The notes below the pieces were generated by a model that was not told the origin of the DNA, did no database searches, and saw only the letters and a list, made by a program, of their open reading frames with translations. This document shows positions 1-22,786 of a stretch of DNA of 32,000 bases, in pieces. The DNA lies in contig JAUVVC010000003.1 of NCBI GenBank assembly GCA_030604855.1, positions 60,001 to 92,000 on the forward strand. The letters are read 5' to 3'. Position 1 is the stretch's first letter. Each line of letters opens with the position of its first letter. The DNA comes from Erysipelotrichaceae bacterium (GTDB lineage: Bacteria; Bacillota_I; Bacilli_A; Erysipelotrichales; Erysipelotrichaceae). Both the position numbers and the translations under genes were made by a program.

Positions 1-1
1 T

Positions 2-1406: not shown

Positions 1407-1411
1407 GCCAT

Positions 1412-1436: not shown

Positions 1437-1440
1437 AATT

Positions 1441-3240: not shown

Positions 3241-3242
3241 CC

Positions 3243-5765: not shown

Positions 5766-5783
5766 TCCGGAGGGGAGAATCTT

Positions 5784-7715
5784 ATGAAATGAGTTTTTAG
5801 AACATTAGCACTGATAGCGTTGATAATGGTGTCGACGCTATCGGCTACCGAAGACGTTCACGCCGCCGAAAAGAGTCTGAATACCAGTATGGTCATTCAG
5901 TTCTCAACCGAAATCCAATACAGTGCGAATCTAAAGGACTTTAAGATTGCACTTTCATATTTAATGTATCCTTCTGCTAACCCCGGAAATCAGCTTAGAG
6001 AAACCGTTTTACTCGATAATGGGACATCCATTTCGCGTAAATCCAATACCTTAAGCGTCTATGTTCCAGGAGCCGATGGCATCGAATATACGGGGAATTT
6101 CTCGTTCGACTATTCGTATAATAGCGCGACAGGAAGTTTATCTGTGAATGGTTCGTCTGTTCCACTGAACAGCAGCACATACATCAATGCGAATGCTTAC
6201 CCTGAAGCCTACGTGAATGCCGCCGTAGTTGGTGTGGGAATGAATCCACAACCGTTCAATTTGGTAAAAGCTTTTACCGGCATGTCTGACAGCCAAATCA
6301 CTGCATTCAATGCGAGAGCCAATGGCGAAATTACGGATAATTTAGTGTTGGCATCCAGCATCTATGGAACCAATATCCAGACGAATACGAAATTGACAAT
6401 GTTCGTTAACGTATGGAAGCGTAGACCCGATGGGACTTATGATAAATCCCAAGCAGCAACTCGTGTTCAGGTTATCTACACCGCAGCCGACTTAATGAAT
6501 GGGAAAGCCCAATCCGCGAGCTGGACTGGCCAGCAGTATTTCAGACAGCTCGTAGGAGCGAGAACGGCAAGTCATTATTCCAAAACGAAGACTGATGTAA
6601 TCTCAACGGGTAAGTTTAGATATGAATATCAGGTTCAGGACTATATTCGAACTGATTATTCGTGGGGGTTCAACGGAAGCATAGGTTCAGTGAGCGGAAT
6701 CACGAATGGAGTCTGCTATCCGAGTGCAACCAAGAAGTGCTTTACGACTTTTTATAAATACACAAGATACCAAATCAAATGTTCGAACTGGTGAAGAACA
6801 TCCTTCTCTTATGGATGGAGCGCATCGAGTTCTGTTGGTGATTCGTGGTGTAAATCGAATACGAGCCAACCCTATTATCGTTCTGTAAACTCATCAGAAA
6901 CGACTGATTGAACAACGATGAGTTCGTTCAACGGAAGAAGCAGAACGGCAACTGGACATACTTATCAGACGCGTATTGGAACGATGGTTTGGGGTGCGCC
7001 TTACTGGCAATTCTTCGCGCCGAGTGCGGAGCAAAGACATTTATCAACAAATAAAGTTGAATTAAAAGATGTGATTTACACACCTTATTATCGAATTGAA
7101 GAAAACAGCGTATCAGTTGACCCTGTTGATAAAATCACCGAAGGGGAAGTAAATAGTCGTGTGAATACGTATGCGGCCGGAGCGGTGGATGTTTTAGTGC
7201 TTAGAAAGAACGGACACAATCCAGAATTGCCTGTTTCTACCTATAATTCATATGCTTCTGCTGTTAGAGTTGAAGCTACGAATTTGGCAAATTCAAGCTT
7301 CAGAGAAGGCCATTATTGAGGTTTGTATCTGTATCTGACCGGACACTGGAGAGCTGTTGAGGTTCCAGTTGGTTGGTTTAGCTTATCCGCAAACACGAGC
7401 AGTGGCACGATTCTTTCTGGATACTACGATGATACGATTATTACGCCGCCATTACCGGACCCAGATACCGAAACTGAAATTGCACTCGTTGATTTCACTT
7501 ACGTTGAAAGCGTGTTTAAGCAATTAAAGGCACAGTATCCAAGCTATACGCTCAATGCAGTTCAAGATAAACTCATTGAAGCTCTAAGAGCCGATGGGAA
7601 CAACGCCGCGAAGAAAACTGTCGCTCTTCACGATAGTTATATCGAAGAGGGAATGACGAAATCCAATGTATTCATTACGATTAGCAGCGATTTAAATATC
7701 AATTTAAAGGACTAA
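5784..7715 (+). CDS. Secreted protein of unknown function, 643 aa in code 4 (sense TGA at 5790, 6792, 6909, 7317)
   Basis: RBS GGAGGGGAG lies 6 nt before ATG 5784. The N-terminus MKWVFRTLALIALIMVSTLSATEDVHA is a signal peptide. Track ORFs 5820-6794, 6918-7319 and 7323-7715 share one frame, and I checked the gaps codon by codon for TAA/TAG. Stop codon is TAA at 7713. Confidence 0.8.
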
Positions 7716-7807
7716 TGCAAGGTTTTGCCATAGTTTTTTATAAAATGACTATATTACTTTATTGAACAATATAATTATATTATAATATAAATATATTAAA
7801 AAAACAC

Positions 7808-9118
7808 ATGGAGATGGAAATGAACATCAAGAAAATCCTTACAATCCTTACACTCATTGTACTCGCGCTTAGCGCGGGTGCTTTGGTGTATTTCAACACT
7901 AAGACGGATGTCGTCCTAAATGGCGACCCGGTACTCACCAACACTACCAACAATGAAATTAAAGAACCTGTCAAGGTGAATAACGGCAAGAAGCTTTCTT
8001 GCTACGATTTTATTAACACCTTACTTGAGAAGGATGGGTTCACGCATCTTGAAGGAACAAAGTGGAGCAGAGGGGAAAACAATTTTTTCATCTTTGATTT
8101 GGAGAAGGAAGAATTCCAAATTGCCGACGCTTACCATACCGATGTTCTTCCGAGCGAATGGTATAAAAATGAATATGAAAAATATGTGAGCTTCATTTAT
8201 CGAAACGAAACACGAGTATTGGACTTTATGAGTTTTGATGGAGCATCTGTTTACGTTGCCTTTTCTATGGATAATAAAGAACTTAACGATACTGAAAATG
8301 GTTTCTATGACTTCCCGATTTGGATGGACTACTATTTGACTCAATTCGAAACTTATGGTTGTTCTTATAATCCTGAATTTAAGACTCAACTTTCAACAGC
8401 AACTGTAGAGGATGTTATTTCTGTTTTTGATGTGAAATCAACCGATGGCGTCATACGGTATTTTAACGACGTCCATGTCGAAGGGGATGTAAAAGACCAC
8501 CCGCGCTATATCGAGGTCCAGAGCTTTGAAGAGTTTCACAAGGTAAAGGATGAGTATGGGTTTGAAATTATGTACATGTTCAATATTATCAGCAGCAACA
8601 AAGGCAAAGTCTTTGAAACTGAATCAGACCACCTTCAGGCTAGTATCATTGAGGAATTCGTAAAGGATGTTGTATACCCTAATATTCCGGAACGAAACGA
8701 TGCTAAACAAGTCGAAACGCTTGGTATATATTTCATCGATATTGATAACCCAAATGGCAATTTTAAAAGCCTGTACAAAGCGCCAACAAAAGGAGTTCCT
8801 TTCTATTATGAGCCAGAACTTGTCGGTAAAGATTTAAGAAAACTAAGCACCCCTTACGAAGGAACCGTTATAGGTGCCAATAAGAATACCTCGACAACCT
8901 ATGATTACACCCCGTTTAGTGTCTCTGACATCCAGAATGTCTTGGATGATTACATCAGACGAATCAATGCTGTCAATGCTTCGGTTTCCTTCTCAGACGA
9001 CTTCATCCGTAACTACACCCGCCCATTTGCGTACGAATGGCAGAAGCAGATGGGGTTGACTGAACTGTTCAATAAAAAGTATGGTTTTATTGACCACAGC
9101 ATTGTATACTTGAATTAA
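7808..9118 (+). CDS. N-terminally membrane-anchored protein of unknown function (436 aa; 432 aa if ATG 7820 is used)
   Basis: Long intact ORF with an AT-rich promoter region upstream. GGAG lies 6 nt before ATG 7820. TM helix ILTILTLIVLALSAGALV. All 4 Trp codons are TGG and there is no TGA. Confidence 0.75.
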   Translation: MEMEMNIKKILTILTLIVLALSAGALVYFNTKTDVVLNGDPVLTNTTNNEIKEPVKVNNGKKLSCYDFINTLLEKDGFTHLEGTKWSRGENNFFIFDLEKEEFQIADAYHTDVLPSEWYKNEYEKYVSFIYRNETRVLDFMSFDGASVYVAFSMDNKELNDTENGFYDFPIWMDYYLTQFETYGCSYNPEFKTQLSTATVEDVISVFDVKSTDGVIRYFNDVHVEGDVKDHPRYIEVQSFEEFHKVKDEYGFEIMYMFNIISSNKGKVFETESDHLQASIIEEFVKDVVYPNIPERNDAKQVETLGIYFIDIDNPNGNFKSLYKAPTKGVPFYYEPELVGKDLRKLSTPYEGTVIGANKNTSTTYDYTPFSVSDIQNVLDDYIRRINAVNASVSFSDDFIRNYTRPFAYEWQKQMGLTELFNKKYGFIDHSIVYLN

Positions 9119-9180
9119 TTTCTACAAGAAATCATTGTCTCTGTAAATAAGCAAGTGTTAAAAGAATTTATGCAAAAGTC

Positions 9181-9208
9181 TTGAAATCTAGTATGTTTGT
9201 ACTATAAT
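9181..9208 (+). promoter_or_regulatory. Sigma-70-type promoter of the antitoxin RNA
   Basis: TTGAAA (9181-9186), 16-nt spacer, TATAAT (9203-9208). Confidence 0.6.
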
Positions 9209-9238
9209 GAAGATGTAGTTAAGCATACTTCGCAAGAT

Positions 9239-9342
9239 GATGACGTGTGACGGTTCCGACACGTCGGTAAAATAAAAGTGACCGAGCGAAGATGACGTGT
9301 GACGGTTCCGACACGTCGGTAAAATAAAAGTGACCGAGCGAA
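9239..9342 (+). repeat. 2 x 52-nt perfect tandem direct repeat (GATGACGTGTGACGGTTCCGACACGTCGGTAAAATAAAAGTGACCGAGCGAA), with partial copies at both flanks
   Basis: Copies 9239-9290 and 9291-9342 are identical base for base. Each contains the hairpin GACGTGT...ACACGTC and an A-rich single-stranded tract. Confidence 0.95.
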
Positions 9343-9351
9343 GAAAGTATT

Positions 9352-9378
9352 GGGAAACTCTAAGTTTCCCATTTTTTT
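9352..9378 (+). terminator. Intrinsic terminator between the antitoxin repeats and the toxin gene
   Basis: GGGAAAC-tctaa-GTTTCCC hairpin followed by ATTTTTTT. Confidence 0.8.
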
Positions 9379-9400
9379 AGAAAAAAAGTGGGGGAATATT

Positions 9401-9868
9401 ATGTTTGATTACGAAATTCGAGAACTTACTACTACTTTCTATTTGGCATACCCAAGTTCCAAGTACAGTGAAATTGTGACCAAGAATATTCGACCATATG
9501 ATGTTGCGGTGTTTGACACACCAGAAGACTTCTATATTTGCATTCCTTTCAGAAGCTATATAAGGCATTCTTATTGCTACCATTTTAAGCATTCGATGCG
9601 CAGCCAAGTTAAACAATCTGGGCTAGATTATACAAAAATTGTTATTGTGAAGAATGAGTCTTACATTGGGAAATGTACAGTTGTCGATAATGATGAAGCA
9701 AAAGAGCTCAGAATGAATGCAGTTAATATTCACAAAGATGCACTAAAATATGTTAATGGTTATATAAATCATTTGAAGGGTACAAAAATACTCGCTAGTG
9801 AAGAATTTAATCGTAGGTATAAATATACAACACTGTCTTACTTTCATGCAGAGCTAGGGATAGAATAA
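9401..9868 (+). CDS. Type III toxin candidate (ToxN/AbiQ/CptN-like endoribonuclease), 155 aa
   Basis: RBS GGGGGAA lies 7 nt before ATG 9401. The size and the position directly after the repeat RNA and terminator fit a type III toxin. The family call rests on architecture; sequence identity was not verified. Confidence 0.6.
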   Translation: MFDYEIRELTTTFYLAYPSSKYSEIVTKNIRPYDVAVFDTPEDFYICIPFRSYIRHSYCYHFKHSMRSQVKQSGLDYTKIVIVKNESYIGKCTVVDNDEAKELRMNAVNIHKDALKYVNGYINHLKGTKILASEEFNRRYKYTTLSYFHAELGIE

Positions 9869-9876
9869 TTAACATG

Positions 9877-9900
9877 AACACCTCGAAAAAGGTGTTTTTA
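9877..9900 (+). terminator. Terminator of the AACACC/GGTGTT family
   Basis: AACACC-tcgaaaaa-GGTGTT followed by TTTA. Confidence 0.7.
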
Positions 9901-10160
9901 ATTTTCCGAAAAATAACGGGTAGATTTTTTGTTAGACATTTAGACTTTCTAGTGAAATTTTCTACGATTTTTGAAGGACTTCTCTTGAAAAAAACTAATA
10001 AAAAGCGCAAAAATGCCCTAAAAGTGCTCAAGAAACCCTGTTTTAAGTCAAAATCCCGTCAGGCTCAGAACCCGACGACATTTTAGAAGCCGATATTTTT
10101 GAAGGGGATAATTCATTAATTACTTATATTTCTCTCTTGGAAAATCTATATTGAAAACAG

Positions 10161-10251
10161 GAATATAAAAGGGGAAAAGAACGACGGAAACGATTCAGCC
10201 CCCCGTGTTTCAAGAAAACAATTAGGCCAAAGAGCCCCAGGAGGTTGTTTT
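10161..10251 (+). promoter_or_regulatory. Conserved leader, copy 1 (most diverged)
   Basis: ATAAAAGGGGAAAAGAACGACGGAAACGATTCAGCCCCCC ... GGCCAAAGAGCCCCAGGAGG followed by ATG. Confidence 0.6.
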
Positions 10252-10596
10252 ATGGAAGAGAAGTATTTATTTGATGATGAAGAAGAAGAGATTATAATTC
10301 CATCTAAGGAGCTTATTAAACGGCTGATTGCGGAGTACGGAATCAACAGAAGTGATATAACGTCATTTCTCTATGATGTTTCTAAGGGACAGGTTGACGG
10401 TTTCTGTCACGGAAGTCGTTTTAGAATTTCTTCCGATTACGAATATCTAAAGCGACATGATGTTCTTTCACATCTTTATATTGATAGGGATGACATCGGA
10501 CATTATATCTACACGGAAAAATTCTATGATGACGTCAAGAACATCATTCATTCCTTATTTAGAGAAGCCGAACTGCAATTCATCTCAAATAATTAG
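10252..10596 (+). CDS. Small acidic hypothetical protein (114 aa)
   Basis: ATG lies 7 nt after RBS AGGAGG. Stop is TAG, followed at once by a terminator. No Trp codon. Confidence 0.7.
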   Translation: MEEKYLFDDEEEEIIIPSKELIKRLIAEYGINRSDITSFLYDVSKGQVDGFCHGSRFRISSDYEYLKRHDVLSHLYIDRDDIGHYIYTEKFYDDVKNIIHSLFREAELQFISNN

Positions 10597-10619
10597 AAAC
10601 GCCGTAATGGCGTTTTTTT
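10597..10619 (+). terminator. Intrinsic terminator
   Basis: AAACGCC-gtaat-GGCGTTT followed by TTTT. Confidence 0.75.
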
Positions 10620-10660
10620 ATATTGTTATAATATAGAGAATCGTTGAGTAGAATAATGCA

Positions 10661-10742
10661 TCAAATAAAAAGGGGAAAGAACAGGAAACGTTCGCCCCCT
10701 TTATTGGACACAATAAGCCAAAATAAGGCGGGAGGATGTTTT
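10661..10742 (+). promoter_or_regulatory. Conserved leader, copy 2
   Basis: CAAATAAAAAGGGGAAAGAACAGGAAACGTTCGCCCCCTTTATTGG ... GCCAAAATAAGGCGGGAGG. A TGTTATAAT extended -10 box lies upstream at 10623-10631. Confidence 0.65.
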
Positions 10743-11033
10743 ATGGAAGAGCTATATTTATTTGAGGGTTTTAATTTTACGCACAAAGAATTGCAAGTGA
10801 TTGAGAAGGTTAGAGAACAGAAATTCACAATTCAGAACTTCATTATGTTCTTCGGGTTCAACCGCACCAACGAGTTAATCCAAGCTAAGGTTCTAGGTGT
10901 CACTGGCAAGAACGAAAGAGGCGACGACTTGTATGGTTTTATTTTCTTTAATGAGAAAACGATGTCCTTTTCCTTACTTGGTTTACTTGTAAAAATTTCA
11001 CTCGAGAATCAATTCGGTAAATTACCCGAGTAA
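10743..11033 (+). CDS. Small hypothetical protein (96 aa)
   Basis: ATG lies 7 nt after RBS GGGAGG. The upstream part of track ORF 10644-11033 is the leader. Stop is TAA, then a terminator. Confidence 0.7.
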   Translation: MEELYLFEGFNFTHKELQVIEKVREQKFTIQNFIMFFGFNRTNELIQAKVLGVTGKNERGDDLYGFIFFNEKTMSFSLLGLLVKISLENQFGKLPE

Positions 11034-11047
11034 GCCTTCGAATATGA

Positions 11048-11072
11048 GAACACCAGAATAATGGTGTTTTTC
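11048..11072 (+). terminator. Terminator of the AACACC/GGTGTT family
   Basis: GAACACC-agaataat-GGTGTTT followed by TT. Confidence 0.75.
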
Positions 11073-11120
11073 TTTGTTTCATCGTTATAATACAAAAAAT
11101 CATTGAGTATAATGGGAATA

Positions 11121-11199
11121 TCAATAAAAAAGGGGAATAAACAGGAAGCGTTCACCCCTTTATTGGATTATAAGCCAAAATAAGGCGGGAGGATGTTGT
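11121..11199 (+). promoter_or_regulatory. Conserved leader, copy 3
   Basis: CAATAAAAAAGGGGAATAAACAGGAAGCGTTCACCCCTTTATTGG ... GCCAAAATAAGGCGGGAGG. Confidence 0.65.
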
Positions 11200-11514
11200 G
11201 TGGATTGCGAAGTGGTAGAGGCAGTAGAAGAGGTTGAAGAAGAATTTAAGGGTGTTGATTGAGAATTTATCGCTCAGCTTCATAACAGAACTGCAGCCGA
11301 TATTAGAGAATTCGTTTCGATTCTCGCGGAAGAAGAACAGATGACGAAACACCTATCATTTAGACTTGTCGATGATGATTTCTCTGGTCTCGGCGTGATG
11401 GTTTCATTTCGCGAAATGACAGAGTATAGTGAGTTATTTCGTTCGTTCTGTATTTTTTTGAAAGTCTCGGGATATACCTTTAAGAGTATCTGAAACCCGA
11501 AGCTTAAAGACTAA
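11200..11514 (+). CDS. Small acidic hypothetical protein, 104 aa in code 4 (GTG start; sense TGA at 11260 and 11491)
   Basis: The GTG sits at exactly the position of the ATG in leader copy 2 (GGGAGGATGTTGT-GTG versus GGGAGGATGTTTT-ATG). The frame is open to TAA 11512, and a terminator follows at once. The standard-code ORF track misses this gene. Confidence 0.65.
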
Positions 11515-11537
11515 GAACACCTGAAAAGGTGTTTTTT
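11515..11537 (+). terminator. Terminator of the AACACC/GGTGTT family
   Basis: GAACACC-tgaaaa-GGTGTT followed by TTTTT. Confidence 0.75.
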
Positions 11538-11594
11538 ACTGTATTATTTTTTATTATCCTTATATTTTTAAGGTTTCGATTATAGAATACAGTA

Positions 11595-11690
11595 TCAAAT
11601 AAAAAAAGGGGAACGAAAACTGGAAACATTCACCCCTTTTGTTTTGATTTGAAACACAAAACAAGGCCAAAAGAGCCGGGGAGAATGTGT
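11595..11690 (+). promoter_or_regulatory. Conserved leader, copy 4
   Basis: Nearly identical to copy 5 apart from one hairpin loop: AAAGGGGAACGAAAACTGGAAACATTCACCCCTTTTGTTTTG-loop-CAAAACAAGGCCAAAAGAGCCGGGGAGAATGTGT. Confidence 0.7.
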
Positions 11691-12044
11691 ATGAGAATGA
11701 ATATGGAATTCGTCAGTGGATTAAACGTGTTGGAGCAGTCCTGAATCAGGGATTCTCTACACGAACGCATCGAGCAGATTATAATGGAAAGCAAGGCGGA
11801 AGTTTTCGCTTTCGACGGCTGTCATAAGATTTATCTAATCGAGGATGAGAACGACATTGAAGAGGCGCGCAAATACGGATACGACATTTATCGTATCGAA
11901 CGCTTGGAAAGTGCCTTTCGACACAGTTGCTCAATGCGGTTCATTCAGGATTGGAATTTTAAAAAGTCCTATATTAAACAGTTTGAATTTATTGATGTTG
12001 TTGAACAAAAGGAGAAAGAAAATGAGATTTCCTTCACTGATTAA
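11691..12044 (+). CDS. Small hypothetical protein, 117 aa in code 4 (sense TGA at 11742)
   Basis: ATG lies 7 nt after RBS GGGGAG. Track ORF 11784-12044 is the C-terminal part in the same frame. Confidence 0.65.
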
Positions 12045-12303
12045 AGAAGCGAATATTTTTATTCCGACTATTGGCGAGAATTATAATCACACACTTGAAT
12101 ACATCAAGGATGACGTGTTAGATTATGCCGTTGACTTCGATATATACTATCGTGTTAACTGTTCTAATTCCGAAGATGGTAAGAGCGTAAATGTTCGAAT
12201 AATGTGTAAGACCGAACGTGAGTCTGAAGAAGCACTGATGTTCATCGGTTATATTCTTCAGTCTTATCCAGGAATGACCTGTTCGTACTCGAATGAAGAA
12301 TAA
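12022..12303 (+). CDS. Small acidic hypothetical protein (93 aa)
   Basis: RBS AAGGAG lies 7 nt before ATG 12022. It overlaps the previous gene end by 23 nt. The 5' part of track ORF 11845-12303 is an out-of-frame overlap. Confidence 0.6.
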   Translation: MRFPSLIKEANIFIPTIGENYNHTLEYIKDDVLDYAVDFDIYYRVNCSNSEDGKSVNVRIMCKTERESEEALMFIGYILQSYPGMTCSYSNEE

Positions 12304-12326
12304 AACACCAGTAAAATGGTGTTTTT
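12303..12326 (+). terminator. Terminator of the AACACC/GGTGTT family
   Basis: AAACACC-agtaaaat-GGTGTTT followed by TT. Confidence 0.75.
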
Positions 12327-12374
12327 CTTATTTTTATCATTATAAATCAAATAATTCATGCATATAATTGAATA

Positions 12375-12466
12375 TCAATAAAAAAGGGGAACGAAAACTG
12401 GAAACATTCACCCCTTTTGTTTTGAGAAACGCAAAACAAGGCCAAAAGAGCCGGGGAGAATGTGTG
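12375..12466 (+). promoter_or_regulatory. Conserved leader, copy 5
   Basis: Same sequence as copy 4 apart from the hairpin loop (agaaacg versus atttgaaaca). The distance from GGGG to the start codon differs by 2 nt, so the frame differs between the two copies. Confidence 0.7.
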
Positions 12467-12688
12467 ATGAAGAGAGCAGTTAAGGTTTTTGGTATTTTAA
12501 TGAATACCATATTAGGAGAAAACAACGAGTCTTTTGAAGAAGAAATGGCATTTGCAGATGCTGTTACGGCTTGAGAGCGCGGAGAAGGTGCTTTAATTAG
12601 AGAAGAAGCCCACAAAGCATCACAAGAAGAGCGATTGGCTTATTTAGATGACCAACACGAATTAATGATGGAATACTTAGGTGCATAG
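12467..12688 (+). CDS. Small acidic hypothetical protein, 73 aa in code 4 (sense TGA at 12572)
   Basis: ATG follows RBS GGGGAG. The frame is open to TAG 12686. Confidence 0.6.
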
Positions 12689-12690
12689 TT

Positions 12691-12954
12691 ATGAAAAGAA
12701 ACTATCAATTAACCGAAAAGCATTTCGAATTCGTCGATGGAAAATGAGTCTTGGTTCGTCCGGAATCTGTTGAAGTTGTTAATCACGAGTATTACCAAAA
12801 TTGTGTTTCTAAAGAAGCGATTAAGTTCTTTAGAGCATTAGGCGGTAAAGAAAACTTAATCTTTAAAAACGGGAAAGCGATTTTGGCCAGTGTCAGTCCT
12901 AATGGATTGATGAAAACTGTTAGAACGTTCGAAACGTTGGATTTTGAGGATTAA
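12691..12954 (+). CDS. Small hypothetical protein, 87 aa in code 4 (sense TGA at 12745)
   Basis: ATG lies 2 nt after the previous stop. Track ORF 12751-12954 is its C-terminal part in the same frame. Confidence 0.6.
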
Positions 12955-12956
12955 GC

Positions 12957-13220
12957 ATGACGTACAATGGAAAAAGCTACGCACGCATCTGTCCGAATCT
13001 ATTCGGGGAGCTGACGTTGAATGGCGAAGCTCTAAAAGCCGGCGATTATATCGCAATTCTTAGACTCGAAAAAGAAGAGCCTTATGAGGAGTTTGACACG
13101 GTTTTCTTTGGACATGTCGGTTACACAGACCGAAAAGCATTCCAACTTGAGAACTGCTGACCGCACGACCCGGAGGTTGAGGTATATGGACTATGAGCCG
13201 GAATACCTGAAAAGGATTAA
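12957..13220 (+). CDS. Small hypothetical protein, 87 aa in code 4 (sense TGA at 13158 and 13194)
   Basis: ATG lies 2 nt after the previous stop. Read-through ends at TAA 13218, 8 nt before a terminator. Confidence 0.55.
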
Positions 13221-13228
13221 TTAAACAC

Positions 13229-13251
13229 AAACACCAGAAATGGTGTTTTTT
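13229..13251 (+). terminator. Terminator of the AACACC/GGTGTT family
   Basis: AAACACC-agaaat-GGTGTT followed by TTTT. Confidence 0.75.
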
Positions 13252-13390
13252 AGTGCTTTTTAGGCGGTTTCCTATGTATTAAGGTATTTGTTCGTCTTCC
13301 TTCGAAACACCCCGAAAACAGGTTGTTTGACGCCCAAATAGGGGTGGCGGCTCAGGGGGAAGGATAATAGATTAAAAGGATAACACTTTC

Positions 13391-13500
13391 TTTAATATAA
13401 CTTTTATATTAAACTGTAAATATATCAAAATATATCAATTCAACCCTTAAAGCACCCTTTTTACCCGTTAAAGTTATAGAATACATATAATATAAATATA
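13391..13500. promoter_or_regulatory. AT-rich iteron/inverted-repeat region upstream of parA (candidate centromere-operator)
   Basis: Inverted repeat TTTAATATAA-ctt-TTATATTAAA (13391-13413). Direct repeat TATATCAA at 10-bp spacing (13421-13428 and 13431-13438). ACCCTTAAAG / ACCCGTTAAAG repeats. TATAAT at 13486-13491. Confidence 0.45.
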
Positions 13501-13540
13501 TTTAAATATATGGCTCAACAAGAGCTGAGGAGATATGATT

Positions 13541-14314
13541 ATGGGTAAAATTATCGCGTTAGCGAATCAAAAGGGTGGTGTTTCGAAGACGACATCATCC
13601 GCATTAATGGCCTATGGCCTTCATCATCGAGGTTTTAAAGTTTTATTGGTGGACTTAGACCCACAGCGGAATCTTTCAAAAAATATGAACGCGAAGACAA
13701 CCGGAGACGTTAAAACTTCCATGGAGCTACTTCTAGGGACGGCGACGGCGGAAGAAGCAATCCAGCACCTACCGTATTTCGACATCATCCCAGCGAAGAA
13801 AGAATTGGCTAGTATTGAGCCATTAATGCCATTGTCTGGTCGATTAAAAAAGCTTAAGAAGGGTTTAGCAGCCGTAAAGGACAAATATAATTATATTATT
13901 TTAGACACTGCACCGTCCCTAGGGGTACTTTCTGTAAACGCATTAGTGGCAGCGGATGAAGTTATTGTCCCGTCCACTGCTTCCGTATTCTCAATTGAAG
14001 GGTTTTTGGACTTTTTCCAGAATGTCAGAGACGTACAAGAGGACGATAACCCTGACTTAGTTATTAGAGGCGTACTCATCACCATGTTCAACGGTCGAGC
14101 CGTGATTTCAAAAGAATTGGCAGAAATGACAAAAACGCTCAGCGATAAATTCGATGTTAAAACCTTTGATTCTAAAATCCGCAGCTCAGTCTTCATTTCC
14201 GAGAGCCAAGTGCACCGATTCGACCCGTTCGTTGTCGACCCGAAAAACATCGTATGCCAAGACTTCAATAATTTCTTAGATGAATTTTTAGAAGGAGGAG
14301 CTCAAAATGGCTAA
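13541..14314 (+). CDS. parA: ParA/Soj-family partition ATPase
   Basis: Deviant Walker A motif KGGVSKTT near the N-terminus, and ILDTAPS (Walker B-like). GAGGAG lies 8 nt before ATG 13541; the track start at 13535 is too close to the RBS. Confidence 0.9.
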   Translation: MGKIIALANQKGGVSKTTSSALMAYGLHHRGFKVLLVDLDPQRNLSKNMNAKTTGDVKTSMELLLGTATAEEAIQHLPYFDIIPAKKELASIEPLMPLSGRLKKLKKGLAAVKDKYNYIILDTAPSLGVLSVNALVAADEVIVPSTASVFSIEGFLDFFQNVRDVQEDDNPDLVIRGVLITMFNGRAVISKELAEMTKTLSDKFDVKTFDSKIRSSVFISESQVHRFDPFVVDPKNIVCQDFNNFLDEFLEGGAQNG

Positions 14315-14789
14315 GAAAACACCCATACCTACAGACCGCTTCATGGAAGAAGAGGATATCCCACTCTATAAGCGCGCGGCTGGAATGAAAGCACAACAAG
14401 AAGAAAAACCTGTTGAGCCCAAGCCGAAAAAGGATAAGCCGAAGAAATCCAGTCCCGGAAATGATTTAGTCTTTTGTATGTTTAGGCTTAGACCAGACCA
14501 GATAGAAGCACTCGGTATTCTCTACGCGAAAACTCGTGCGAACGTATCCGGAATGGTACGCGACGCTCTAGAAGCGTATCTAAGCGATTATCTTACCGAA
14601 AAGATAACCAAGGTTCATATTCCGCTTGAATCGAACCAGACGGCTGGAAATGCGCTGGAGACGAAAGGGATTCGATTAAGCCCTAGACTCATCGAAGCGG
14701 TTGGAATTGTTGCTGTTTCCAACGGAGTTAACCGGAGTGAAATTGTTCGATTCGCGATTGATGAATTTTTAGCTAAAAAAGACGCCTAG
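14307..14789 (+). CDS. Tandem ribbon-helix-helix DNA-binding protein, probable centromere-binding partner of ParA
   Basis: Overlaps the parA stop by 8 nt. Lys/Pro-rich linker. Two RHH-like units (FRLRPDQIEALGILYAKTRANVSGMVRDALEAYL and IRLSPRLIEAVGIVAVSNGVNRSEIVRFAIDEFL). Confidence 0.65.
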   Translation: MAKKTPIPTDRFMEEEDIPLYKRAAGMKAQQEEKPVEPKPKKDKPKKSSPGNDLVFCMFRLRPDQIEALGILYAKTRANVSGMVRDALEAYLSDYLTEKITKVHIPLESNQTAGNALETKGIRLSPRLIEAVGIVAVSNGVNRSEIVRFAIDEFLAKKDA

Positions 14790-14800
14790 AAGGCGTTTTT
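14782..14800 (+). terminator. Intrinsic terminator overlapping the stop codon
   Basis: ACGCCT-aga-AGGCGT followed by TTTT. Confidence 0.7.
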
Positions 14801-14840
14801 AATTGGTTAATCGATTGATATAATAGGCTATACTTAGTAT

Positions 14841-15416
14841 ATGGAAATTAATGTTGTTGCCAATAATAAAGCTATCGTCTCATATGACAACGGTACTGAA
14901 ATTAAGATACCTTCACAGATGTTTCCTTTAAATGGTGAGCTAAAGCTTTTTACATCGAATAATACAGAGAATTTAACGGATTCAACGATTGAGTCTATAT
15001 TCAATTCTGTAAAGCCAAGAATGGGTAAATGTTATTATAACGCCCAGGACTTAATTGATGCCTTGATTGTTGGCGGTATTGACTCGAAACGCATAAAATC
15101 CTATGTAGGTTGGCTATTTGTTGGGGATACGAGACCAGTTCATCACTGTTTTGTTATGCTGGACGACAAACATGTTCTGGATTATGGACCCTTGAAGCTG
15201 TTTGAAAATTTTGATGAGTACACAGATATGGATTCACTCGATAGATTCAAGAATGACATCATTGAGAATGATGTGCTATTGAATTCACAGAAGATGACCT
15301 TCGGAAGAGCGCTGAACGTGATTGCCTATGTCGTTTCAGAGTGTAGCCCCAAAGAAGGCGAGAAGATACGAGCGAAGCTCGAAAAAGCTTACCCAAAGCA
15401 CATCAGTTTTCTTTAG
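14841..15416 (+). CDS. Hypothetical protein (191 aa)
   Basis: Intact ORF. TATAAT lies about 15 nt upstream and there is no clear RBS. Its single Trp codon is TGG. Confidence 0.55.
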   Translation: MEINVVANNKAIVSYDNGTEIKIPSQMFPLNGELKLFTSNNTENLTDSTIESIFNSVKPRMGKCYYNAQDLIDALIVGGIDSKRIKSYVGWLFVGDTRPVHHCFVMLDDKHVLDYGPLKLFENFDEYTDMDSLDRFKNDIIENDVLLNSQKMTFGRALNVIAYVVSECSPKEGEKIRAKLEKAYPKHISFL

Positions 15417-15429
15417 GTATCATGAAATG

Positions 15430-15455
15430 TAATTAGAATCCGCGGATTCTAATTA
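15430..15455. repeat. 26-bp perfect palindrome TAATTAGAATCCGCGGATTCTAATTA
   Basis: Read directly and self-complementary over all 26 nt. No T-run follows. Confidence 0.9.
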
Positions 15456-15496
15456 GAGCTTAATCATTATGCATTAAAAACATACTGTAAAACCAT

Positions 15497-15518
15497 GAAC
15501 ACCGAAAGGTGTTTTTTT
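15497..15518 (+). terminator. Terminator of the AACACC/GGTGTT family
   Basis: GAACACC-gaaa-GGTGTT followed by TTTTT. Confidence 0.75.
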
Positions 15519-16793
15519 GTTGTTTTCTAGGAGAAACCAGGGTCTATGCGTATCTAGATAGTGCACCCTTGGCTTAATGCAGGGTTTAGTCCATTGAAAT
15601 CTATGAAAAAGTTATAAATGACTTAGAGCCGCAATATGATGCGGCAAACAAATAAATAAAAAAACCAGTTGTCTCATTAGAATTTAGAGTTCTAAAAAGG
15701 CGACCTAGGCAATCTCGTACATTGCGTTGGTGTTTAACTAGTTGTCTTCATTATACACAGAAGAAAACGAAATATAACTAAAACCCTGTTGTAAACCTCG
15801 AGAAATGCCACTCGGGGTTTTTATATCATGATTAAATCCCAATTTAGCTAGGTGAAAAACGTTGGGTTGAAATAGAGTGGGTTGGCAGCCCAAAGTGGAA
15901 CTAGGTAGATGAAAGAAGTGCTCCGGACATAGGGTTTTTCGCGTTGCGCCTATGTTCGGGCAAACCCGCGCAGTAATTCAGAAGAAGAGCGGGAGACAAA
16001 AACTATTCTGGGGCTACAAGAAGACCATTGAAAGCATATGTGTCTGGGAGCAGATTACTAAAAACATACAGTAATCGAAAATCATAAGGGCTAAGTTATT
16101 AAAACGTTGGTGAATACATTCAGCAAGACGTCTTTCGAAAGGAAGTTGACTTAGGATAACGCGAATAATACGGATACAACACGGAGACTTAACTCGACCC
16201 GAGGGAAGAATCATTGTCTAGATTAATCAATACCAGCAAAACTCTCAAGGGTTTTCTGCGTCCCGCTGAAAAGATTAAGCCGTTTCAAGCCGTTTCTTCC
16301 TCTCGCTCGGGAAGTTGGGAATGCCAAAGATAAGGCTGAAACGAAAAGAAAACAAAACATAATAGCAAAGCAGCGGACGCGATAGAAAGTAAGTGTAAAC
16401 GGAAACGATACAGAATGAGTTGGATTCCGAGTAATTAAAAAAGTTTTACTAGAATCGAAAGTTAAACAAAGGAACTTAGCAGTGTAGATAAGAGTTAAGT
16501 GATAATCAATCAATAATGAATAGATAATCAGTTAAGTCTAATCTAATAAATACATACTAAACTAAGAATGACTCAATTCAACCTAATAGAGCTTCTCGTA
16601 CAATAAAGTGATTCTTGACTAAAAACATTGATTTTGGAAATAATTTTCTAAAATTCACTTTGTGGCATACTTATGCGACACAATAAATAAGGGCCAATTT
16701 TACAAAGATTTCAAACAAAAATTGTTGTTTTATAAGTCAAGAAAATGATATATGATAGCATAAATTGGCTAGGTGCCGTAAAGGAGAAATGAG
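15519..16793. other. 1.3-kb ORF-free region with a GC-richer structured core (about 15840-16450); candidate large ncRNA or origin region
   Basis: TAA/TAG occur in all frames, and only two short, low-complexity minus-strand ORFs are present. Local and long-range helices are listed in the findings. Confidence 0.4.
15796..15822 (+). terminator. Intrinsic terminator inside the ORF-free region
   Basis: CCTCGAG-aaatgcca-CTCGGGG (one G-U pair) followed by TTTTT. Confidence 0.5.
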
Positions 16794-17222
16794 ATGAAGT
16801 ATAGTCTTTTTAACTATAAAGAATTTGACGAAAATGATTGCGAGTTCAGAATCAACACCTATATTGTCGACGGTATAAAGTTGAGTGAATTGGAATTTGA
16901 TTCACTCAGATATGCAAGTCCCTTCGGAGATAACCCAAGTGGTTTGTTCTTTTACAGTATTTCTAAATCAAGATTTAGAAAACTAGTGAAGTTAGGAGTT
17001 ATATTAAAGGACCATGATAGTCCATATAGAGCTATGTATGTTGTTGATAAAAATTTTAAAAGACGATTGGATGAAATTGCAAAAGAACTTAAAGAAATCA
17101 ACACAATGAGAAAAGCAGAGCAATGGTCGATTGACAATGGCTATGAGTTGCTAATAACGTACCAAACCATGATTGATGTTGATAAAATCATGGATGTCAG
17201 GAAGGAAGCAAGACCAATATAA
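16794..17222 (+). CDS. Hypothetical protein (142 aa)
   Basis: RBS AAGGAG lies 7 nt before the ATG. Intact ORF. Its single Trp codon is TGG. Confidence 0.65.
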   Translation: MKYSLFNYKEFDENDCEFRINTYIVDGIKLSELEFDSLRYASPFGDNPSGLFFYSISKSRFRKLVKLGVILKDHDSPYRAMYVVDKNFKRRLDEIAKELKEINTMRKAEQWSIDNGYELLITYQTMIDVDKIMDVRKEARPI

Positions 17223-17498
17223 AAGAAAATGCTTATAGGGAGTTTTCAATCTGATGTCTTGTTGAATGCTTTAAATTGATTCGATAAAAGATTCATAGAT
17301 TTGGGGGATTATGGTGAGATTAACTTGGTAATTTTTGACTTATTTTGTGCATTATGGATTATCGATGTAAATGGTCCTCTTGTTTAAGGTTGTGACCTGG
17401 CAATTGAGAAATACTGCGCTTTGAGTGATTGATTACTCAGTAACCATCTAGCTTCACAAATATAAGTAAGTGATACACTAGAAAAAAAAGAGGGAAAA

Positions 17499-18746
17499 AT
17501 GAAAAAAAATAAAGACACTGACCTAATCATCAAAGAGCTGAAAGGGGGAGGATATAGCTTTCGATTCTACATGAAAAACTTATTAACCGGAGAACCTGAA
17601 CAAATAACAAGGCAAAACAGAAAGTGGACACGTGAAGAAGCGGAAAATGAATACTATAAGATTAAGCTCCAAGGGTCAAGCTACTTTACATTTAAAAATG
17701 CTAAAGTTATACCATATTATGATGAACAGCCTAAACCGAACTTCGGAACTTTATATTTTTACTATATAAGAGACAGAATCATACACGCCAAACCATCAAC
17801 AGTTAATGAAGCGCGGACACAATACAAAGCTTTCATAAAGCCCTTTTTCGATTATGAAAAGACTGATGAGTTGACCCAGAAGAAACTCAACACCTGGAGG
17901 TCCTTCGTTATTAACCATACTAGGAAAACCCCCCCATATAGAACAATTTCACCGATAACCAAGAATCACATTATAACAATATTCAATAATTTAATAAGAT
18001 TTGCGCATGAGTTCGACAAGAATCCACCTTATGATTATCTCAGATTCAACATACCACAGGGTATAAGTGTAGAAAGAGTAGAGATATCAAGTAAAGATAA
18101 ATCAAAAAGGAGAACATACTGGAAGCGTAAAGATTGGGATAAGTTTCTCGAAATGATTCCCGAAACAAATATTCAAGATAGAGCCATATTCTATACGCTT
18201 CTTTTTACATCGATGCGAGTAGGAGAATTAAGGTTCATTAAAGCGCACAGCATTGACATAGAAGACGGAAGAATCGAAATAGAGGGGAACATTGGCAGAC
18301 AATCGTTAGAAATTGACGGGGCATCATGGATTGAAACGACGACAAAAACGGGTGATGGACGGCATGTATATTTAGACGAATCTATCATGAAACATCTGGA
18401 AGCCTGGATTAAAGAATGCAGAAAGAGAGAAAAATACAACCCATATGAAGATTATTTGTTCAGCGTAAACAATGGGAGAACACCCATAAGCATCAACACA
18501 ATTAGAAAAAGATTCAATGAATATAAAAGAGCAATGAAAATAAAATACCCGGATATGGACGGAAGCGTTATCCTACATGGGTTGCGGCATAGTTCGATTA
18601 CATACTTCGCAAGAGAAGTTGACGTTCAAGAAGCTATGCTTATCGCGGGACATAAATCGGCTGCTACAACGGCACTTTACACGCACGGAAATATGAAAAA
18701 ATCGACAGCCAAGAAAGTGGCATTAGGGGAATTAAAGGATAAGTAA
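17499..18746 (+). CDS. Tyrosine site-specific recombinase/integrase (415 aa)
   Basis: C-terminal catalytic motifs MRVGEL (Arg), HGLRHS (H-x-x-R), GHKS and LYTH (Tyr). All 6 Trp codons are TGG. Confidence 0.9.
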   Translation: MKKNKDTDLIIKELKGGGYSFRFYMKNLLTGEPEQITRQNRKWTREEAENEYYKIKLQGSSYFTFKNAKVIPYYDEQPKPNFGTLYFYYIRDRIIHAKPSTVNEARTQYKAFIKPFFDYEKTDELTQKKLNTWRSFVINHTRKTPPYRTISPITKNHIITIFNNLIRFAHEFDKNPPYDYLRFNIPQGISVERVEISSKDKSKRRTYWKRKDWDKFLEMIPETNIQDRAIFYTLLFTSMRVGELRFIKAHSIDIEDGRIEIEGNIGRQSLEIDGASWIETTTKTGDGRHVYLDESIMKHLEAWIKECRKREKYNPYEDYLFSVNNGRTPISINTIRKRFNEYKRAMKIKYPDMDGSVILHGLRHSSITYFAREVDVQEAMLIAGHKSAATTALYTHGNMKKSTAKKVALGELKDK

Positions 18747-18787
18747 AAATAATATGTTTTACTTATAATTCATCAATGTTTAAGGTC

Positions 18788-18824
18788 AATACATTACAAA
18801 TGATATATATATTTGTAATGTATT
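18788..18824. repeat. Perfect 14-bp inverted repeat AATACATTACAAAT-gatatatat-ATTTGTAATGTATT just downstream of the integrase gene
   Basis: Read directly. It lies in the interval that must contain the element-chromosome junction. Confidence 0.85.
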
Positions 18825-18877
18825 TATGCAATATTAACCTATAGTGCATACCCTGTAGTCGGCACCATTTGCACACG

Positions 18878-18902
18878 AAGCCTTATAAACAAAGGCTTTT
18901 TT
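18878..18902 (+). terminator. Intrinsic terminator
   Basis: AAGCCTT-ataaaca-AAGGCTT followed by TTTTT. Confidence 0.65.
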
Positions 18903-18954
18903 GTTGGTCGCAATAACTTAACACATCAAATTGTTTTATTTGTTCAACAACAGA

Positions 18955-20766
18955 TTATCGAGTTATTATTCCTGCTCCAAATTTAAATTGATGTTTTACT
19001 AAATCATAACTCTCCATATTCAACGTATGACTGGCTTGTTCATTCGTGATTGGCCAAGTGAAGGGTAGCGTACCTTGAAATGGTTTATCTCCAAATAACA
19101 CATCTGTCATGCCATTGCCTTCCGTTCCAGGTAACCATGCCATGACAAAGGCATCCCATCCATCTAGGAAATCGTTTATAAGTAGCGGACGACCTGCAAT
19201 CATGACTGTTACGATGGGTTTGCCTAAAGTCTGTGCATGTTTTACAGCTTTCATGTTGTCCGCTAATGACAAAGGACCATCAAGTGATAAGTCATCTGTA
19301 TCCCCATGCATTTCTGCATAAGGTTTTTCACCAATGGCTAAGATGATCACATCCGCATCTTCTGGATTGCTTACTAATTCTCCGCCATTAATAGTTAATA
19401 CTTCATTAAGTGCATCTTTTAGACTGATGCCATGATTGAGATTAGGATCTGTTTCACCTTGCCAACTCAATGTCCATCCACCACATTGAACGCCAACATG
19501 ATCACTTGCCGGGCCAGTTAAATAAACTTTGATATTCTTTTTCAAAGGAAGAATGTCTTCATTTTTGAGTAATACCATAGATTTTGCGACAGCTTCTCGA
19601 GCAACCCGCTTAGATTCCGCCGTACCAATTTCACCTGCCACTCTTAGCAATTCACCATCAAAAAGACCTGCCTCGAATTTCAATACGAGATTTCTACGTA
19701 CTGCTTCATCCAGTCTTTCTTGAGATATTTTGCCATGATTCACATTGTACAGGATCGACTTATATACTTCTTTCCAATCATTAGGTTGCATAAGCAGATC
19801 AACACCCGAGTTGATCGCTAAAGCAACTTGCTCATTGAGGCTTGGCGCAATCGCATGAATCGCTTCCCAGTCGGAGACAACCAATCCATCAAATTGGAGC
19901 TCAGTTCTTAGCAAATCGGTGAGTAAGGAAGGGTCACCATGCACCTTAACACCATTGACGCTGTTGAAAGAGGCCATAATCGCGCTCGTGTTCGCATCAA
20001 TAGCTGCAACATAAGCGCTTAAATTACCTGCCAACATCGCTTCTTTGCTCATGGTCACATCACCACGATCAATTAGGTTATTATCTTCCCCAGTTAGAAA
20101 GGTAGTAAATCCATCCCCAATAAAGTGCTTGGTGGTTGATAGGATGCCTTCTGACAATAGACCTTCAATATAAGGAGCTGCCAACGTTGCGACTCTTTGA
20201 ATGTCTTCTGAGTAACTCTCATAGGTTCTACCCCAACGAATATCCTGTGCTGAGGATACAGCCGGCGCAAAATTCCAGTCGACGCCAATGGCGGATACTT
20301 CTTTAGCGGTAGCGACACCAATAGCTCTCATCAAATCAGGATCATTGGCGGCACCAAGTCCGATGTTGTGAGGGAAAATCGTCGCATTCTTGACATTGTT
20401 ATTACCATGAACGGCATCAATACCATAAATGATGGGAATCCCTGAGGAAGATTTAAGTGCAGCCACATTCATTTGATTGATCATACTTACCCAAGCTTCA
20501 GGTGTATTACCTTGTGGAACACTTCCACCACCACTCAAAATGGAGCCAATGTTATAACGTGTTATGTCAGAATAACTTATTTTAGATCTTTCAGCTTGAA
20601 TCAACTGACCTGCTTTCTCTTCCAGTGTCATGGCTTGAATGGCTTGATCAATATCGGATAAAGACTGAATACGTATCTTTCCTCGGCCATTGTCTGATGT
20701 GCATGCGCTTAAAACCAAGACCAAGATAATAAACGTGAATAATCCTTTAGATTTTATGAATTGCAT
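18955..20766 (-). CDS. Glycoside hydrolase family 3 lipoprotein (beta-glucosidase / exo-beta-glucanase type), 603 aa
   Basis: Lipobox LVLSAC after a signal peptide. GH3 motifs GIDAVHGNNNV, KHFIGDG and VVSDWEAI. Confidence 0.9.
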   Translation of the reverse strand: MQFIKSKGLFTFIILVLVLSACTSDNGRGKIRIQSLSDIDQAIQAMTLEEKAGQLIQAERSKISYSDITRYNIGSILSGGGSVPQGNTPEAWVSMINQMNVAALKSSSGIPIIYGIDAVHGNNNVKNATIFPHNIGLGAANDPDLMRAIGVATAKEVSAIGVDWNFAPAVSSAQDIRWGRTYESYSEDIQRVATLAAPYIEGLLSEGILSTTKHFIGDGFTTFLTGEDNNLIDRGDVTMSKEAMLAGNLSAYVAAIDANTSAIMASFNSVNGVKVHGDPSLLTDLLRTELQFDGLVVSDWEAIHAIAPSLNEQVALAINSGVDLLMQPNDWKEVYKSILYNVNHGKISQERLDEAVRRNLVLKFEAGLFDGELLRVAGEIGTAESKRVAREAVAKSMVLLKNEDILPLKKNIKVYLTGPASDHVGVQCGGWTLSWQGETDPNLNHGISLKDALNEVLTINGGELVSNPEDADVIILAIGEKPYAEMHGDTDDLSLDGPLSLADNMKAVKHAQTLGKPIVTVMIAGRPLLINDFLDGWDAFVMAWLPGTEGNGMTDVLFGDKPFQGTLPFTWPITNEQASHTLNMESYDLVKHQFKFGAGIITR

Positions 20767-20905
20767 AATTACCTTTCTATCGATGTGATGTATTTATCTT
20801 CTGGCAATGATGATCTCATTATTTGTTTCGAGCTTTGTATATTACATAAAATTCAAACAAGTCGTTTGTTTGTTGAGATGTTCTTCGTTCTTGTCAAGAA
20901 AGTTC

Positions 20906-21628
20906 TTATTCTTTTGTGTCCATGTTCGCAAATAGACTGGATACACTCAATCCTGTGTGCATCGCTTGGGTTAGCTTAATGAGGGCTTCTTTGTTTAAGA
21001 TGGTATAACCGCTACTTGATTTCCCGAGATAACCCTTCTTTACAAAATCCGCAAGCACATAAAGAAGATGTCGATATGTCACACCGAGGTATTCCGCTGC
21101 ATTGCCATGCATTTCGCGATAGTGCCCATTAGGGGCTGCCAATAAGATAAAGGACGCTAATCGATTGGGCAATGGATATGTTTTTGTCTCCGCAAGAGAA
21201 GCGACATTACGCATGTTCTTATTCCCGAGATAAGTGGATAGTGTTCGTAAAAAACGTGCATCACTCAAGAGTTGCTCACGACAACCGTCTAGCGAGAGTG
21301 CCAAGCACACGCAAGGAACCAAAGCTTGAACCGATCGCGAATGTGTATGTACAGCCAATAGCTCCATTTCGCCAATGAAACAGGGGGCATTGAAGAAATC
21401 AATCAGAGTTCGTTTGCCATTCGGCAAAGTGATAAAGAGTTTAGCTTGACCTGACACCAAATAGAAAAGATACTCAGGAACTTCACCTTCTTTTGTGATC
21501 TCATCATCGGCGTCAAAGTGGATGAGTTTGACATAAGCTTCTGCATCAAAGGTAAAAATATCGAGAAAATTAGACTTACTCAACGCATTCTGAACTTCTG
21601 GATGATTATGAAGGATTCGCATGGTCAC
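20906..21628 (-). CDS. Crp/Fnr-family transcriptional regulator
   Basis: N-terminal cNMP-binding fold (FIGEMELL) and C-terminal HTH (AAEYLGVTYRHLLYVLADFVKKGYL). The start may be ATG 21622. Confidence 0.85.
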   Translation of the reverse strand: MTMRILHNHPEVQNALSKSNFLDIFTFDAEAYVKLIHFDADDEITKEGEVPEYLFYLVSGQAKLFITLPNGKRTLIDFFNAPCFIGEMELLAVHTHSRSVQALVPCVCLALSLDGCREQLLSDARFLRTLSTYLGNKNMRNVASLAETKTYPLPNRLASFILLAAPNGHYREMHGNAAEYLGVTYRHLLYVLADFVKKGYLGKSSSGYTILNKEALIKLTQAMHTGLSVSSLFANMDTKE

Positions 21629-21713
21629 CTCGTGTGAGATATCTCATATACAGTATAGAACGGAAACACTATAATGCAAAGTATAGAATCGTTAAATCAA
21701 GGAAAGGATTTAA

Positions 21714-22646: not shown

Positions 22647-22660
22647 CTAAATCCTGTGAA

Positions 22661-22688
22661 AGACACGTTGATAGTGCGTGTCTTTTTA
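22661..22688 (+). terminator. Intrinsic terminator
   Basis: AGACACG-ttgatagtg-CGTGTCT followed by TTTT. Confidence 0.75.
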
Positions 22689-22786
22689 ATCGTTGGATGT
22701 ATACGCACAGTCATTGGTTCGCTATAATTGCTAGAGAACCAAACATTGATTTTGTGAGAACATTCTTACAGAAAGGGAACACATCA

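Follow-up and report, generated by a model that had tools for sequence, protein, structure and literature searches.

The stretch of DNA analysed here, called the window below, comprises 32,000 nucleotides (positions 60,001 to 92,000 of contig JAUVVC010000003.1, from the Erysipelotrichaceae assembly GCA_030604855.1) and joins an integrated mobile element, whose use of the codon TGA is the subject of this report, to the chromosome of its host. Positions 1 to ~18,860 are the right-hand 19 kb of this non-phage element, which continues beyond the left window edge. Logan contig L043 is 100% identical to it over 9.3 kb and extends it 2.2 kb leftwards, adding the start of the first gene (ORF1, ~86 nt left of the window), two small TGA-containing open reading frames (ORFs), a GC-rich palindrome cluster and a MutH-like gene of which the 3' end is included. 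The same proteins occur in Logan SRR14872665. The approximate right junction (attR, 18,845–18,870) was set by the empty sites of two element-free relatives (L007 and L008), whose similarity to the window ends at ~18,850–18,866; a second Logan contig covers it, the tyrosine integrase of the element sits at it (~18,850), and the terminator of the host GH3 gene (18,877–18,899) lies beside it.

The remainder (18,955–32,000) belongs to a standard-code, Erysipelotrichaceae-like Firmicute. Its 11 complete genes, which contain no in-frame TGA and 24 TGG, include those for a GH3 glycosidase, a Crp-family regulator, a nucleoside hydrolase, a PucR/CdaR regulator, a GntP permease, a glycerate kinase (GlyK), DUF1232 and SHOCT proteins, a Cu-ATPase and CsoR, and the region is syntenic with metagenome-assembled genomes labelled Erysipelotrichaceae UBA4808 and Bacillales UBA5632 (GH3 identity 84%). 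Two of the 11 genes stop at TGA, namely those for GlyK (end 26,667), which has a full-length Pfam match, and the SHOCT protein (end 27,706), as do 15 of 35 genes (43%) in relatives of the host. Within Bacillota, translation table 4 is given for Mycoplasmatales only (bioRxiv 10.64898/2026.05.24.727570). Element and host do conflict in their codes. Code 4 is rejected for the host on these stops together with the TGA-free genes in the 13 kb of host sequence in view.

The ORFs of the element were opened with TAA and TAG as the sole stops, and the codon pairs given below are in-frame counts of TGA and TGG, in this order, per gene. The fragmented ORFs of positions 1–7,715 merge into long genes once TGA is read through. 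All genes lie on the plus strand except the second. ORF1 (2–1339; 3/6), which is cut by the window edge, matches DUF4326 weakly; its neighbour encodes a BspA-type leucine-rich-repeat (LRR) surface protein (1541–2716, minus strand; Pfam LRR_5, 1.4e-54; 5/1, with TGA at codons 5 and 9 among others). A NikA-like ribbon-helix-helix (RHH) protein (2911–3240; Pfam PF21983, 7e-7; 0/0) is followed by an 840-amino-acid (aa) TrbL/VirB6-like polytopic membrane protein (3243–5765; 2/4, TGA at codons 7 and 190), homologues of which carry PF19590 (TrbL_3), then by a 643-aa secreted protein with a signal peptide (5784–7715; 4/10, the first TGA at codon 3) and by a 436-aa membrane-anchored protein (7808–9118; 0/4). 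The structure model of the last (pLDDT 85) has no match in the PDB, and its fold is without known match; a role in exclusion or immunity would be a guess. Beyond a type III toxin-antitoxin-like unit and an array of small-gene cassettes, a Walker-type ParA ATPase (13,535–14,314; Pfam AAA_31, 7e-47) and its small RHH partner (14,307–14,789; RHH_3, 1e-7), neither with a Trp codon, are encoded by overlapping genes that make up a plasmid-type (ParG-like) partition module. Two proteins of no known function (191 aa, 14,841–15,416, 0/1; 142 aa, 16,794–17,222, 0/1) and the tyrosine integrase at the right end (17,499–18,746; Pfam Phage_integrase, 9e-21; PHROG 1, 1e-42; 0/6) complete the set.

Over its 20 genes the element holds 21 in-frame TGA and 34 TGG, against 0 and 24 in the adjacent host genes (Fisher p=1.7e-4), and every one of the 20 ends in TAA or TAG, never in TGA. 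The hand counts of a preliminary description of this DNA, drawn up from the sequence only, proved exact in the per-gene census. Nine genes contain TGA (21 TGA and 22 TGG together), namely ORF1, the LRR, TrbL-like and 643-aa genes and five cassette genes (11,200–11,514, 2/0; 11,685–12,044, 1/1; 12,467–12,688, 1/0; 12,691–12,954, 1/0; 12,957–13,220, 2/0); some of the TGAs in the small cassettes are less certain, codon 68 of 12,957–13,220, for example, being possibly a genuine stop. The 436-aa, 191-aa, 142-aa and integrase genes spell all 12 of their tryptophans TGG, and neither codon occurs in the toxin-like ORF, ParA, both RHH genes and the first two cassettes (10,252–10,596 and 10,743–11,033), nor in 12,022–12,303. 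Seven TGA-free genes (2911–3240, 9401–11,033, 12,022–12,303 and 13,535–14,789; 986 codons) thus lack any Trp codon, where ~11 would be predicted at the element-wide 1.1%. The Trp frequency is 1.5% in the recoded genes and 0.63% in the host.

Contigs carrying relatives of the element were gathered through homologues of the TrbL-like protein and aligned codon by codon. In the TrbL-like, 643-aa, ORF1 and LRR families of ~10 related elements, columns with an invariant Trp are spelled now TGA, now TGG, and 27 of 36 TGAs fall in conserved-Trp columns; codon 190 of the TrbL-like gene, for instance, aligns to an invariant Trp. The homologues of ORF1 in L035, L004, L037, L003 and L045 carry TGA too, as do 643-aa family members of all nine elements examined. 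L035, a relative 94% identical to the window, differs from it by TGA/TGG swaps, so turnover is ongoing, and between the two the ratio of nonsynonymous to synonymous substitution rates (dN/dS) in the TGA-bearing genes is 0.046–0.25 at dS 0.12–0.8 (0.046 for the TrbL-like gene; 0.065 for the 643-aa gene). TAA and TAG are absent inside these genes. On these alignments, TGA is a sense codon for Trp in the element, and in view of the low dN/dS and the missing internal TAA and TAG codons the genes that bear it are functional rather than pseudogenes. Pseudogenes or an assembly error are ruled out by the low dN/dS, the TGA/TGG interchange and the identity of the independent Logan contig over 9.3 kb, and selenocysteine or glycine (code 25) by the alignment of TGA with Trp or aromatic columns. 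A preference of TGA for non-conserved columns was not significant (p=0.2).

As in organisms wholly on code 4 (Mycoplasmatales and others), UGA means Trp, TGA and TGG are interchangeable and no TGA stop occurs within the element. Unlike in those organisms, only some genes of a mobile element show the reassignment, genes of the chromosome around it stop at TGA, and TGA amounts to just ~26–38% of the Trp codons (~1 in 4 in the large genes).

The use of TGA differs among the genes of the element (permutation p=0.0065), and its avoidance is best seen in the 436-aa gene. Six diverged elements together show 0 TGA and 28 TGG in this family (0 and 24 in the five besides that of the window), versus 36 TGA and 100 TGG (26% TGA) when the TrbL-like and 643-aa families are counted in these six (Fisher p=7e-4). 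The 436-aa protein has 19 database homologues, every one intact and full length, with 97 Trp codons and no TGA between them, whereas the TrbL-like protein is full length in just one of the 10 closest standard-code gene calls and has in-frame TGA at eight of nine loci examined. The 436-aa gene is part of the syntenic core (in the window, as in most relatives, it comes directly downstream of the 643-aa gene) and has diverged in step with its neighbours (identity between elements 46–64%, versus 38–64% for the 643-aa protein). A separate arrangement occurs in L044 (1–21,317), where the 436-aa and 643-aa genes stand in reversed order within an array of at least 12 paralogous ~234-aa genes, almost all of them TGA-free, with no TrbL-like gene nearby.

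The integrases of the window and of L035 are both TGA-free (0/10 in total), that of the window in spite of A at 38% of its third codon positions. That of L035 (129–1394, minus strand; 0/4) is 30% identical to it and lies at the opposite end of its element; it stops at TGA, followed by TAA two codons on, and so has nearly the same end under either code. As the preliminary description held, the standard code suffices to translate the integrase, ParA, RHH and toxin-like genes, and the 436-aa gene as well; equally, it does not suffice for the large surface and secretion genes, although purifying selection acts on these.

TGA is also unevenly placed within the recoded genes. In those of the element and its relatives, the first 15 codons hold 7 TGA and 3 TGG, versus 50 and 158 further downstream (p=0.0038), and the three TGG exceptions are all in ORFs of doubtful start. 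The early TGAs occupy several independent, non-conserved signal-peptide positions (e.g. MKw, MKAKLKw and MKKNwFRNw). Since UGAs often fall within the first 3–11 codons, the products of abortive translation would be tiny, and this 5'-proximal bias fits a translational gate.

A gene for the decoding of UGA did not turn up. With ARAGORN, neither the window nor any of 17 loci related to it or overlapping it yielded a tRNA; the hits to Rfam at E<=1 were two unrelated sub-threshold ones in window 1–19,200 (E 0.2 and 0.93, far under the gathering score) and none in L043 1–2400, so that a suppressor tRNA or known RNA of the element is set aside for these stretches. Family searches of its larger genes (six small cassette ORFs lay outside the Pfam scan) returned neither a tryptophanyl-tRNA synthetase (TrpRS) nor a release factor, nor any other gene recognisable as one that alters the code.

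The reading to which we cautiously incline is that the recoding of the element serves as a translational gate that is opened by a decoder acting in trans. ORF1, the BspA-type LRR protein, the TrbL/VirB6-like and 643-aa proteins and several small cassette genes would need UGA to be read as Trp, and an unmodified standard-code ribosome would make the integrase, the 436-aa protein and the Trp-free partition, RHH and toxin-like proteins. In the integrated, resident state, release factor 2 (RF2) would terminate at the UGAs, so that the surface and secretion apparatus would stay off while the maintenance functions are made, and full-length surface and secretion proteins would appear only once UGA is decoded efficiently. 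The decoder could lie in a variant tRNA-Trp(CCA) of the host or an altered state of its RF2, in a recoded phage or a suppressor-carrying helper element present in the same cell, or in a product of the unseen left end.

Several observations weigh against such a gate. No decoder gene was found in the ~21 kb of the element in view (window and L043, the left end being out of view) or in related loci. The regions 1–7715 (14/21) and 7808–18,746 (7/13) do not differ (p=0.78). Most of the TGA-free maintenance genes (ParA, both RHH genes and the toxin-like gene) simply have no Trp and are therefore uninformative on codon choice, so the set of maintenance genes fixed a priori has its Trp codons in the integrase alone (0/6 vs 21/28, p=0.07), and the 12 Trp codons of all the TGA-free genes reach only p=0.058 by permutation. 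The best-supported TGA-free gene, that of the 436-aa protein, is not one for integration, partition or addiction, and it probably shares a transcript with the two recoded genes before it (TrbL-like and 643-aa), because no terminator-like site separates it from the latter in the window; its avoidance of TGA is therefore specific to the gene and not regional. The base following the codon is alike for TGA and TGG (p=0.23), and therefore gives no sign of selection for leaky termination; a leaky-termination context is accordingly rejected. The claim of the preliminary description that recoding is modular thus stands in part: avoidance is gene-specific, and it recurs in relatives for the 436-aa family, but the regions named are alike and the modules as stated are not the real units. 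The split on which that claim was built (0/12 vs 21/22) gives p=0.0017 and is circular, because its groups were defined by the outcome.

That no decoder gene was found in any related element would also follow if UGA were decoded constitutively but inefficiently, by near-cognate tRNA-Trp(CCA), perhaps with a 4-bp anticodon stem, or through a weak RF2. UGA would then be an attenuator and not a switch: costly surface genes would yield less product, and avoidance would be expected of genes whose products are required steadily or in larger amounts; we regard this as unlikely, though the best of the alternatives. In Bacillus subtilis, near-cognate reading of UGA as Trp is known and is raised to 19–54% by prfB mutations (PMC7918605), bacterial tRNA-Trp(CCA) whose anticodon stem has 4 bp reads UGA (PMC13092985), and the ongoing TGA/TGG turnover agrees with such decoding. 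However, passive readthrough of a few per cent per codon, as judged from the B. subtilis values (PMC7918605), seems too low for genes with 2–5 UGAs: the yield would be ~1e-3 to 1e-7, and yet the sequence downstream is strongly conserved. The frequent TGA stops of the host and its relatives speak against efficient constitutive suppression, and the context of the TGAs shows no bias at the following base that would favour leakiness.

A mosaic history without any regulation is somewhat less probable still. The TGA-bearing core would come from, or have passed through, code-4 hosts (e.g. relatives of Mycoplasmatales), the TGA-free integrase, ParA, toxin-antitoxin and restriction-modification genes would be recent standard-code modules, and the copies in standard-code hosts would partly be non-functional passengers. 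Erysipelotrichales are phylogenetic neighbours of Mycoplasmatales, the integrases of the window and L035 differ widely and lie at opposite ends, the GC content is lower in the integrase region, and the restriction-modification genes at the left are TGA-free, all of which suits this history. On the other hand, the 436-aa gene is core, syntenic and diverged in step with its neighbours, and is TGA-free in every member nevertheless; flanking genes are standard-code wherever they are visible, purifying selection between the two copies is strong, and a 5'-proximal bias of TGA is not expected from history alone. Chance, with TGA and TGG interchangeable throughout and the TGA-free genes merely low in Trp, could appeal to the 12 Trp codons of those genes in the window (p=0.058), to the seven genes without Trp and to the even regional split (p=0.78), but is very improbable in view of the heterogeneity among genes (p=0.0065) and of the 436-aa family, with 0/24 in five other elements, no TGA among 97 Trp in 19 homologues and p=7e-4 against its neighbours.

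The translational gate that we favour has its nearest parallel in phages. Borges et al. described TAG-recoded Garnet and Topaz prophages that have stop-free integrases and standard-code hosts, and TGA-recoded Jade phages that carry an operon for a tRNA, TrpRS and release factor 1 (RF1) (bioRxiv 10.1101/2021.08.26.457843). The likeness to the prophages consists in a recoded element (~24 kb) that sits in the chromosome of a Firmicute or Bacteroidete on the standard code, with an integrase free of the recoded stop and other genes fragmented under code 11; a translational partition of the life cycle was proposed there. Unlike in the prophages, no structural, packaging or lysis genes of phages are found here, and the core consists of the VirB6/TrbL-like protein, the surface proteins and the ParA partition module; the reassignment is of TGA to Trp and not, as in Garnet and Topaz, of TAG to Gln, and no suppressor tRNA, TrpRS or RF1 like that of the Jade operon was found. 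Decoding genes of this kind occur in many recoded elements, though not in all. Phage structural, packaging and lysis genes gave no PHROG or Pfam hits, and with no relatives in IMG/VR or among GenBank phages either, a phage identity is ruled out.

The other likeness is to the type IV secretion elements of Gram-positive bacteria (the ICEBs1, Tn916 and pCW3 type, with PrgI, VirB4, ConG/TrbL_3 and CwlT). The 840-aa protein is 44–48% identical to the TrbL_3 proteins of L036 and L039, whose genes adjoin those for PrgI, a TraC-like protein, VirB4 and an SLT/M23 hydrolase, and a NikA-like RHH protein, an integrase and ParA are present here as well. In contrast to those elements, VirB4 and the coupling protein occur only in the more distant L036, L039 and L041: neither VirB4, a coupling protein, a relaxase nor a hydrolase was found in the window, in L043, or within 10 kb on either side in L003, L004, L037 and L045. 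The NikA-like accessory protein was the sole find related to a relaxase, ORF1 having no relaxase match. The label ICE-like (after integrative and conjugative elements) in the preliminary description is therefore borne out only partly, by the integrase at the junction, since no VirB4, coupling protein or relaxase was found in the sequence in view of the element and its closest relatives, and "integrative element with a plasmid-type partition module" is the safer description. The element belongs to a small family that appears to descend from Gram-positive type IV secretion elements and that uses TGA as a Trp codon. A plasmid database gave no near match to it, a search of GTDB genomes with a TrbL-like profile gave no match, and a metagenome scan gave two loci only. 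One distant relative, L041 (1–17,145; TrbL-like protein 28% identical), has a full PrgI/TraC/VirB4/SLT module in the standard code with no in-frame TGA, and 12 of its 13 called ORFs stop at TAA; it may represent a TGA-depleted precursor state.

So far, only phages, usually with their own suppressor tRNA, have been argued to gate their life cycle by recoding a stop codon, and the paper searches made here returned no report of TGA recoding in conjugative elements or of a recoded, non-phage integrative element. The same logic appears here in an integrative element that seems derived from a secretion system and has a partition module, with no decoder visible. More tentatively, a non-phage integrative family in standard-code Erysipelotrichaceae that spells ~1/4 of its Trp as UGA, with UGA in the first dozen codons of its exported proteins and no suppressor tRNA of its own, may depend on a UGA-decoding switch new for mobile elements, conceivably a physiology-dependent state of the host tRNA-Trp or RF2, a factor (protein or RNA) that the element supplies, or a co-resident recoded phage. 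If this is so, a non-viral mobile element would use a difference in code to silence costly genes. Should the gate itself hold, code-based gating would be a general strategy of mobile elements and not a peculiarity of phages. Standard-code Firmicutes would then have a means of decoding UGA as Trp conditionally, these being close kin of a lineage with fixed UGA=Trp, and standard-code gene calling would systematically fragment such elements, as in all but one of the 10 closest TrbL-like homologues. Three exported proteins with UGA among their second to eleventh codons offer a concrete experimental handle.

The type III toxin-antitoxin-like unit (9181–9868; 0/0) is named for its architecture: a strong promoter-like site (9181–9208), two 52-nt direct repeats (9236–9339, 98% identical) and a hairpin (9351–9371) precede an ORF of 155 aa (9401–9868). 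The sole match of this ORF is PHROG 8049, of no known function; because no match to ToxN, AbiQ or CptN was found in Pfam, PADLOC or PDB sequences, its identity as a toxin comes from the architecture alone. The array that follows (9870–13,260) holds ~8 small genes, five of them with 7 TGA and 1 TGG in all and three (at 10,252, 10,743 and 12,022) with neither codon. The cassette unit consists of a terminator hairpin (AACACC..GGTGTTTTT), a promoter-like box, a conserved leader hairpin (AAAAAGGGGAA...TTCACCCCTTT) and an AAGGCC...GGGAG ribosome-binding-site box. Terminator-like sites in window 1–19,000 number 41, versus 14.6 expected.

Two assignments were dropped: the 191-aa protein showed no detectable homology to the proteins with a C/H/D motif that lie terminally in L003 and L037, and L037 18,980–19,750 was rejected as a ParA homologue on reading the sequence. 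Between the 191-aa and 142-aa genes, a 1.4-kb stretch without a convincing ORF (15,416–16,794) contains a conserved non-coding segment (15,650–15,920, plus strand) with counterparts at L037 19,920–20,190 and L003 16,810–17,080. It is 70–79% conserved while the proteins are just 40–50% identical, and it forms two hairpins whose pairing is kept by compensatory changes. Neither Rfam nor ARAGORN matched it, and it is not a tRNA; a leader RNA or one that controls replication is conceivable.

Left of ORF1, a restriction-modification pair of a MutH-like endonuclease and a cytosine methylase is recognized in L043 (1–332), L035 (1647–4479) and L045 (1–1823), and is TGA-free (0 TGA and 13 TGG in L035). 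Directly left of the window, the GC-rich (57–60%) segment L043 940–1400, which is 87% identical in L035, contains several perfect palindromic hairpins and no convincing ORF. It is without an Rfam match, and its minus strand folds with z=-4.9; the segment may serve as an origin (sso or oriT) or encode an RNA with a defined structure.

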